A DNA stretch of 64,000 nucleotides from NCBI RefSeq assembly GCF_044324785.1, contig NZ_CP172127.1. One strand, given 5' to 3'. The position numbers and the translations under genes are program-made. Below, piece after piece: positions 31,496 to 31,760 of the stretch; within the stretch, counting starts at the first letter, position 1, and each line of letters begins with the position of its first letter. The stretch comes from Escherichia coli. Its GTDB lineage: Bacteria; Pseudomonadota; Gammaproteobacteria; Enterobacterales; Enterobacteriaceae. The notes under the pieces are model-generated. The model made no database searches, had not been told where the DNA came from, and worked only from the letters and a program-made list of their open reading frames with translations.

Positions 31496-31760
31496 AAGGA
31501 GTCCCTCCGCACTGTCTGAAACAGTACAGAAATGTCTTCAGGCGTGGCGAAGCCTTACCTGAAGGTAATAAAGCTGAGCAGGGACGTTAAAACGTCACGG
31601 CCTTACGCATCCGGTAACGCCGTGAAAAGACGGGCTTACCGGAAAAGTTTTAATCTCCGTCGAGGGAGAGGCGTGGGATCAGGTTCCATATAACCTCCGG
31701 TAAGTGAAAAAAGCGCCGCAAATAATAAGGAGAATCCAATAATATTCGTAGCATCTATGG
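31496..31760 (-). promoter_or_regulatory. mgtA 5' leader (Mg2+/proline-sensing attenuator region containing mgtL)
   Basis: Long untranslated leader upstream of mgtA with the proline-rich mgtL ORF; extent approximate. Confidence 0.6.
31636..31689 (-). CDS. mgtL: mgtA leader peptide
   Basis: 17-aa [17 protein letters not shown] at the end of track ORF 31636..31977. Confidence 0.8.

Follow-up and report, generated by a model that had tools for sequence, protein, structure and literature searches.

The 64,000 nt stretch of E. coli DNA analyzed here (the window) carries mgtA, the gene for a Mg2+-importing P-type ATPase, as a minus-strand open reading frame at positions 28799–31495(−). The 898 aa translation gives 1608.9 bits in a profile search with TIGR01524, an equivalog model for the magnesium-translocating P-type ATPase that has a cut-off of 610.75, and the gene is annotated mgtA in E. 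coli genomes. It is the next open reading frame on the same strand 3′ of the leader-peptide gene mgtL, and it is the regulated gene of the locus. The divergent neighbors treR (31874–32821(+)) and treB (32940–34361(+)) are found upstream of the leader. The interval 31496–31760 represents the 264/265 nt from the mgtA ATG (31495) to the putative transcription start (~31759). The earlier note had read this interval as the mgtA 5′ leader, and both the TIGR01524 score and the identity to K-12 described below bear this out; the strand was missing from that note, and the mgtA leader lies wholly on the minus strand. The region is almost certainly the canonical E. coli mgtA leader, i.e. a PhoP-activated 264 nt 5′ leader RNA that acts as a translation-coupled transcription attenuator, and no feature of the sequence speaks against this.

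Positions 31496–31759 are 100% identical to E. coli K-12 MG1655, and the base-for-base identity to this characterized mgtA leader extends over the −10 hexamer, the mgtA ATG and everything between them. The MG1655 counterparts are b4702 (mgtL, 4467431–4467484) and b4242 (mgtA, from 4467625). The two loci share the mgtL peptide, the 194 nt spacing between the mgtL and mgtA starts and the divergent treR neighbor, and they differ by three single-base changes only, all of which fall in the treR–mgtA intergenic promoter region, before the −10 hexamer is reached. The 17 codon open reading frame of the leader had been named mgtL in the earlier note, correctly so, as its peptide sequence and its position are identical to those of b4702.

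The region is nearly universal among complete E. coli genomes. A 461 nt query across it finds a match in 5425/5426 of them, and the open reading frame is annotated there as 'mgtA regulatory leader peptide MgtL'. The single complete genome without most of the region is E. coli GCU-H1 (NZ_CP178558.1; locus L083, positions 3148–3900), where the match stops near the mgtA transcription start and is followed by an IS1 transposase, a truncated Rid-family gene and bdcA. This layout indicates an IS1-associated deletion of mgtL–mgtA. Three of the 5428 matching places of the treR–mgtL–mgtA query are on records classed as plasmids; these could be chromosomal segments carried on plasmids or misassigned replicons.

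The promoter region displays a direct repeat, GGTTTA-TCGTT-GGTTTA (GGTTTATCGTTGGTTTA), at positions 31783–31799(−), 12 nt upstream of a −10 hexamer TATTAT (31765–31770(−)) that is assigned from the sequence and is not accompanied by a −35 hexamer. The PhoP box has the consensus (T/G)GTTTA-N5-(T/G)GTTTA and replaces the −35 hexamer. The repeat matches the regular expression [TG]GTTTA-N5-[TG]GTT[TG]A, and with the same expression a comparable box at a comparable distance is found in 38/75 species. Thus the predicted PhoP box gives the locus the sequence expected of a PhoP-activated promoter. A generic sigma-70 scan of 31400–31950 shows no full −35/−10 promoter because the −35 hexamer is absent; an activator-dependent promoter would be expected to give this result, which is therefore uninformative. 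Published work places mgtA under PhoQ/PhoP control, with the promoter activated at low Mg2+ (PMC11552253). A transcription start at ~31759 would yield a 264 nt leader RNA (31496–31759(−)) with mgtL at nt 71–124, which is the layout of the Salmonella enterica leader (PMC6460261).

The leader RNA is predicted to be highly structured. The fold of a 267 nt leader has −87.4 kcal/mol compared with −66.9 ± 4.7 kcal/mol for dinucleotide shuffles (z = −4.34), and 0/200 shuffles are as stable. Rfam RF01056 (Mg sensor; 'Magnesium riboswitch aptamer / Magnesium responsive RNA element') matches 31589–31704(−), upstream of mgtA and on its strand, with 125.8 bits and an E-value = 5.5e-25; the gathering score is 40, and the match is full-length, covering model positions 1–115. 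Stem-loop A (31635–31704(−)) is closed by a helix of positions 31694–31704 with 31635–31645, 11 bp in the Rfam alignment and also detected as an inverted repeat (I6; 31696–31704 with 31635–43). It encloses two small hairpins and nearly all of mgtL. Stem-loop B (31595–31625(−)) is seen both in the Rfam alignment and as an inverted repeat (I3; 31614–31625 with 31595–31606). It belongs to the 'high Mg2+ / mgtL translated' conformation and has been named the attenuator (PMC6460261). Stem-loop C (31610–31643(−)), the anti-attenuator, is formed by a 14 nt inverted repeat (I1) with 86% complementarity, of which one side is the 3′ arm of A (31630–31643) and the other the 5′ arm of B (31610–31623). Because C uses one arm of each of the other two stems, it excludes both A and B. 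The mutually exclusive A + B and C folds that characterize RF01056 are therefore both present.

The two alternative states appear close in stability. Constrained folds over 31575–31709 give −39.8 kcal/mol for A + B and −40.9 kcal/mol for the C-containing fold, and such near-degenerate predicted energies are as expected of a switch. When a ribosome is simulated by masking of ~28 nt, a P site at codon 3 of mgtL leads to stem C and a ribosome at the stop codon leads to stem B; these in silico folds reproduce the published ribosome logic. The earlier note had also described the region as the known Mg2+/proline-responsive attenuation region, a description that agrees with the Rfam Mg-sensor match and with published accounts (PMC11552253, PMC6460261, PMC11282234), and the alternative stem-loops whose absence would have counted against it are present: stems A and B and the mutually exclusive C are found as inverted repeats, are near-isoenergetic and have comparative support.

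The comparative support differs among the three stems. An alignment of 73 sequences from Enterobacteriaceae species (A2) covers the A + B state, the inner hairpins and a small downstream hairpin. The A + B state is 96.6% paired in this alignment and shows 10 pairs with double-sided changes, values reached by 0/500 shuffles, whereas controls slid by 1–3 columns are 39–48% paired. Most of the A + B covariation comes from stem B, in which 6/10 pairs show compensatory changes and 98.6% of cells are paired. Stem A shows no compensatory changes in the 73 species and its core pairs are invariant; its support therefore consists of conservation and the Rfam model, not covariation. Stem C is 82.2% paired across species compared with 11–43% for slid controls, with modest covariation. 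Directly 3′ of stem B is the small hairpin, GACGU/ACGUC (31583–31596(−)), in which 3/5 pairs covary, e.g. GC in 59 and AU in 12 sequences.

The 3′ half of the leader, aligned for 60 sequences (A3), has two further hairpins in the RNAalifold consensus. Hairpin 1 (31536–31564(−)), which displays the arms CUUCAGG and CCUGAAG, has compensatory changes in 6/10 pairs. Hairpin 2 (31509–31527(−)) is situated directly upstream of the mgtA Shine-Dalgarno sequence, with 7/8 pairs compensatory and 93.3% paired. Jointly the two hairpins show 13/18 compensatory pairs, which 0/500 shuffles reach.

After stem B the leader also carries a near-invariant GUCCCU motif (31580–31585(−)) that is complementary to AGGGAC (31501–31506) at the mgtA Shine-Dalgarno sequence. 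Pairing of these segments might occlude mgtA translation initiation in one conformation of the leader, which we regard as possible but doubtful. The helix is found in the minimum free energy fold and among the inverted repeats (I5), GUCCCUG hardly varies across the 73 species, and 90.8% of cells are pairable across the 60 species compared with 38–74% in slid controls. The motif also overlaps the 3′ arm of the 31583–31596 hairpin, so the two structures would compete. However, the covariation is no more than column conservation would produce (454/500 shuffles reach it), the AGGGAC side is conserved anyway, being a Shine-Dalgarno sequence, and the helix is absent from the RNAalifold consensus. 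That GUCCCU(G) is an anti-Shine-Dalgarno element which, in competition with the 31583–31596 hairpin, adds translational control of mgtA to transcription attenuation seems distinctly improbable. The GUCCCU/AGGGAC helix, even if real, may not be new.

The mgtL open reading frame (31636–31689(−)) has the sequence ATGGAACCTGATCCCACGCCTCTCCCTCGACGGAGATTAAAACTTTTCCGGTAA and consists of 17 codons and UAA. Its ATG is at 31687–31689, 194 nt upstream of the mgtA start, and its stop, UAA, is at 31636–31638 within CCGGUAAG. The minus-strand sequence reads CUUACCGGAGGUUAU-AUG GAA CCU GAU CCC ACG CCU CUC CCU CGA CGG AGA UUA AAA CUU UUC CGG UAA. The Shine-Dalgarno sequence GGAGG (31694–31698(−)) is 4 nt before the ATG and is itself within the 5′ arm of stem A; ACTTACCGGAGG precedes the mgtL ATG in every species compared. 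Thus the locus has the features by which MgtL is defined, a short open reading frame in stem-loop A that has its own Shine-Dalgarno sequence and ends in the 3′ arm of that stem. The peptide begins MEPDPTPLP, with alternating proline codons at 3, 5, 7 and 9 and, directly after Met, EPDP as its form of the acidic EPDP/DPDP motif.

One genome per species was scanned with the MgtA N-terminus, which gave 80 Enterobacteriaceae loci, of which 79 have enough upstream DNA for mgtL to be counted. The open reading frame is found in 79/79. In 75 of these the peptide starts with M[DE]P[DE]P[TAS]P, and the other four (L030, L034, L057 and L080), which had been candidates for absence of mgtL, carry the open reading frame with Arg or Ser in place of Pro at position 7. 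Across the 75 species P3, P5 and P7 are present in 75/75, as is D or E at positions 2 and 4. Positions 1–7, with the N-terminus M(D/E)P(D/E)PT, are almost invariant and positions 10–16 vary freely. Codon 6 is Thr in 68/75 and is written ACC in 37, ACA in 14, ACT in 10 and ACG in 7; as Thr is kept through all four synonymous codons, this argues for selection on the peptide, beyond the RNA alone. The stop lies within CCGGUAAG, the invariant 3′ arm of stem A, in 73/75 loci, and the length variants (14–17 codons) are in frame. On this comparative evidence mgtL appears to be translated and its peptide appears to be under selection; translation has been seen by toeprinting and with reporter fusions (PMC11282234).

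Other open reading frames overlap the leader. Those on the plus strand at 31532–31693 (53 aa) and 31467–31562 (31 aa) are antisense to the conserved, annotated leader and are unsupported, and were dismissed. A 113 aa minus-strand open reading frame with a GTG start (31636–31977) is not a gene but the mgtL frame prolonged through the promoter into treR antisense. Where a species carries Trp at MgtL position 11 (...A-TGG-AGA...), a second short out-of-frame open reading frame is found (e.g. MENPPSPVSL..., MEKQPFPVSL...), which crosses the 3′ arm of stem A and continues into stem B (loci L009, L011–L014, L017–L022, L026, L035, L036, L047, L063, L065, L078 and others). No Shine-Dalgarno sequence is seen for it in the Trp-11 species, and it is probably a by-product. 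The window carries CGACGG at the Trp-11 site, without the out-of-frame ATG.

The published data suggest how such a leader may operate. The A + B fold has been assigned to high Mg2+ and C to low Mg2+, with efficient mgtL translation repressing mgtA and inefficient elongation at proline and acidic codons inducing it (PMC11552253). EPDP right after the initiator Met is reported to destabilize the ribosome, especially when Mg2+ is low, and so to abort mgtL translation (bioRxiv 10.1101/2021.02.02.429294). The ABC-F factor EttA stabilizes ribosomes on MgtL and thereby represses mgtA (PMC11282234), and EF-P and proline codons act with the same polarity on the mgtA leader (PMC6460261). In the proposed mechanism, with sufficient Mg2+ (and Pro-tRNA, EF-P and EttA) ribosomes would pass the destabilizing M-E-P-D-P-T-P start and reach the mgtL stop; the leader would then take the A + B or 'off' fold and transcription would end before mgtA. 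With limiting Mg2+ or proline, ribosomes would stall or drop off within the first few mgtL codons, and the 3′ arm of A, then available, could join the 5′ arm of B in stem-loop C, the 'on' fold. Formation of C would block stem B, and RNA polymerase would read into mgtA. To this scheme the present analysis contributes the identity to K-12, the existence and conservation of the open reading frame, and the near-equal stability and comparative support of the exclusive helices. The Mg2+/proline response, the peptide-driven ribosome destabilization and the termination step are taken from the literature on K-12 and Salmonella and would apply here; the Mg2+ response was described for the identical K-12 sequence (PMC11552253, PMC11282234).

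Published accounts differ over how Mg2+ is sensed, by the RNA itself or via mgtL translation. As a direct riboswitch, the leader RNA would bind Mg2+ and switch between A + B and C without mgtL translation, and the open reading frame would be secondary. Rfam classes RF01056 as a riboswitch aptamer and the RNA helices are strongly conserved, both of which favor this model, but the signs of peptide-level selection on mgtL (the invariant N-terminus, the synonymous variation and the fixed stop) are not needed for pure RNA sensing, and recent work ascribes Mg2+ sensing to ribosome destabilization on MgtL (bioRxiv 10.1101/2021.02.02.429294; PMC11282234). The direct model is thus unlikely as the account of this leader, and sensing by the RNA and sensing by mgtL translation are not mutually exclusive. 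Practically no credence is left to the idea that the 17 codon open reading frame is a chance, untranslated reading frame in a structured RNA: short open reading frames are common by chance and this one overlaps conserved helices able to preserve sequence unaided, but the same start, GGAGG 4 nt upstream and same stop in 79/79 loci, the in-frame length variants, the free third position of codon 6 and the RefSeq annotation as mgtL all argue against it, as do the toeprinting and reporter fusions of PMC11282234, and published mgtL-yfp/lacZ fusions have already refuted it.

How transcription would end in the attenuator reading is less uniform in the published record. A generic scan of 31400–31950 finds no intrinsic terminator, which fits factor-dependent termination; such a result is expected for a non-intrinsic terminator and is uninformative. 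A rut site would be C-rich, G-poor and exposed in the off conformation; the composition of the leader shows only a mild C-over-G bias, at 31560–31599 (C 12, G 6). Rho-dependent termination has been demonstrated for the Salmonella mgtA leader (PMC11552253, PMC12360218). For E. coli, one paper lists mgtA with the Rho-regulated leaders (PMC7815308), no evidence of Rho termination at mgtA was detected in one study (PMC11552253) and it 'may not be conserved in E. coli' according to another (PMC12360218). Thus the role of Rho in E. coli mgtA termination is disputed in the literature.

The closest known system is the identical K-12 locus; another close one is the S. enterica leader (RF01056). The latter shares the A/B versus C architecture and the proline codons at 3, 5, 7 and 9, and the loci of Salmonella subspecies (L019/L021) align with the window leader throughout. 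The Salmonella MgtL peptide, MDPEPTPLPRWR(I/V)FLFR in the subspecies sampled, is unlike that of the window, and the two leaders differ in Rho-dependent termination as reported above. In E. coli and Salmonella the leader of corA also has a short upstream open reading frame, corL, in a stem A and exclusive off (A + B) and on (C, D) folds, and translation of corL varies inversely with downstream gene expression (PMC11552253). However, corA is a separate locus outside the window, corL starts with UUG and has just one conserved proline, and Rho involvement is shown for it in E. coli. In the attenuators of amino acid biosynthesis (trpL, hisL and others) a ribosome on a leader peptide likewise picks between RNA hairpins that decide whether transcription continues. 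Those leaders have intrinsic terminators and runs of cognate codons, whereas mgtL has no detected intrinsic terminator and an acidic/proline N-terminus that is reported to destabilize the ribosome.

Several other RNA features are found elsewhere in the window. A tRNA-Leu(CAA) at 2642–2726(−), ~29 kb from mgtA, is at the position expected for leuX, a known island integration site. Ysr276, a Yersinia antisense sRNA family, gives a full-length Rfam match at 13699–13893(−) (192.6 bits, gathering score 100) that probably lies inside a conserved coding gene or on its antisense strand. Rfam matches above the gathering score are also seen for the sRNA ES239 (62360–62482(−), 157.4 bits), STnc450 (57731–57788(+), 77.2 bits) and ES036/CssrF (57609–57651(+), 43.5 bits), and naRNA4 (48039–48115(−), 63.6 bits) is barely over its threshold of 59.5.

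The mgtA leader and mgtL are an already known and ordinary feature, with nothing new relative to K-12. The region is a textbook cis-regulatory element in which a PhoP promoter, the mgtL leader peptide and a Mg2+-responsive attenuator are combined, and its correct label keeps the long 'empty' interval between treR and mgtA, and the strong RNA structure there, from being taken as unexplained. The comparative data give small independent support for the published model, with mgtL present in 79/79 species loci, apparent selection on a peptide with the MDPDPT start, and covariation in stem B and in the two 3′ hairpins.
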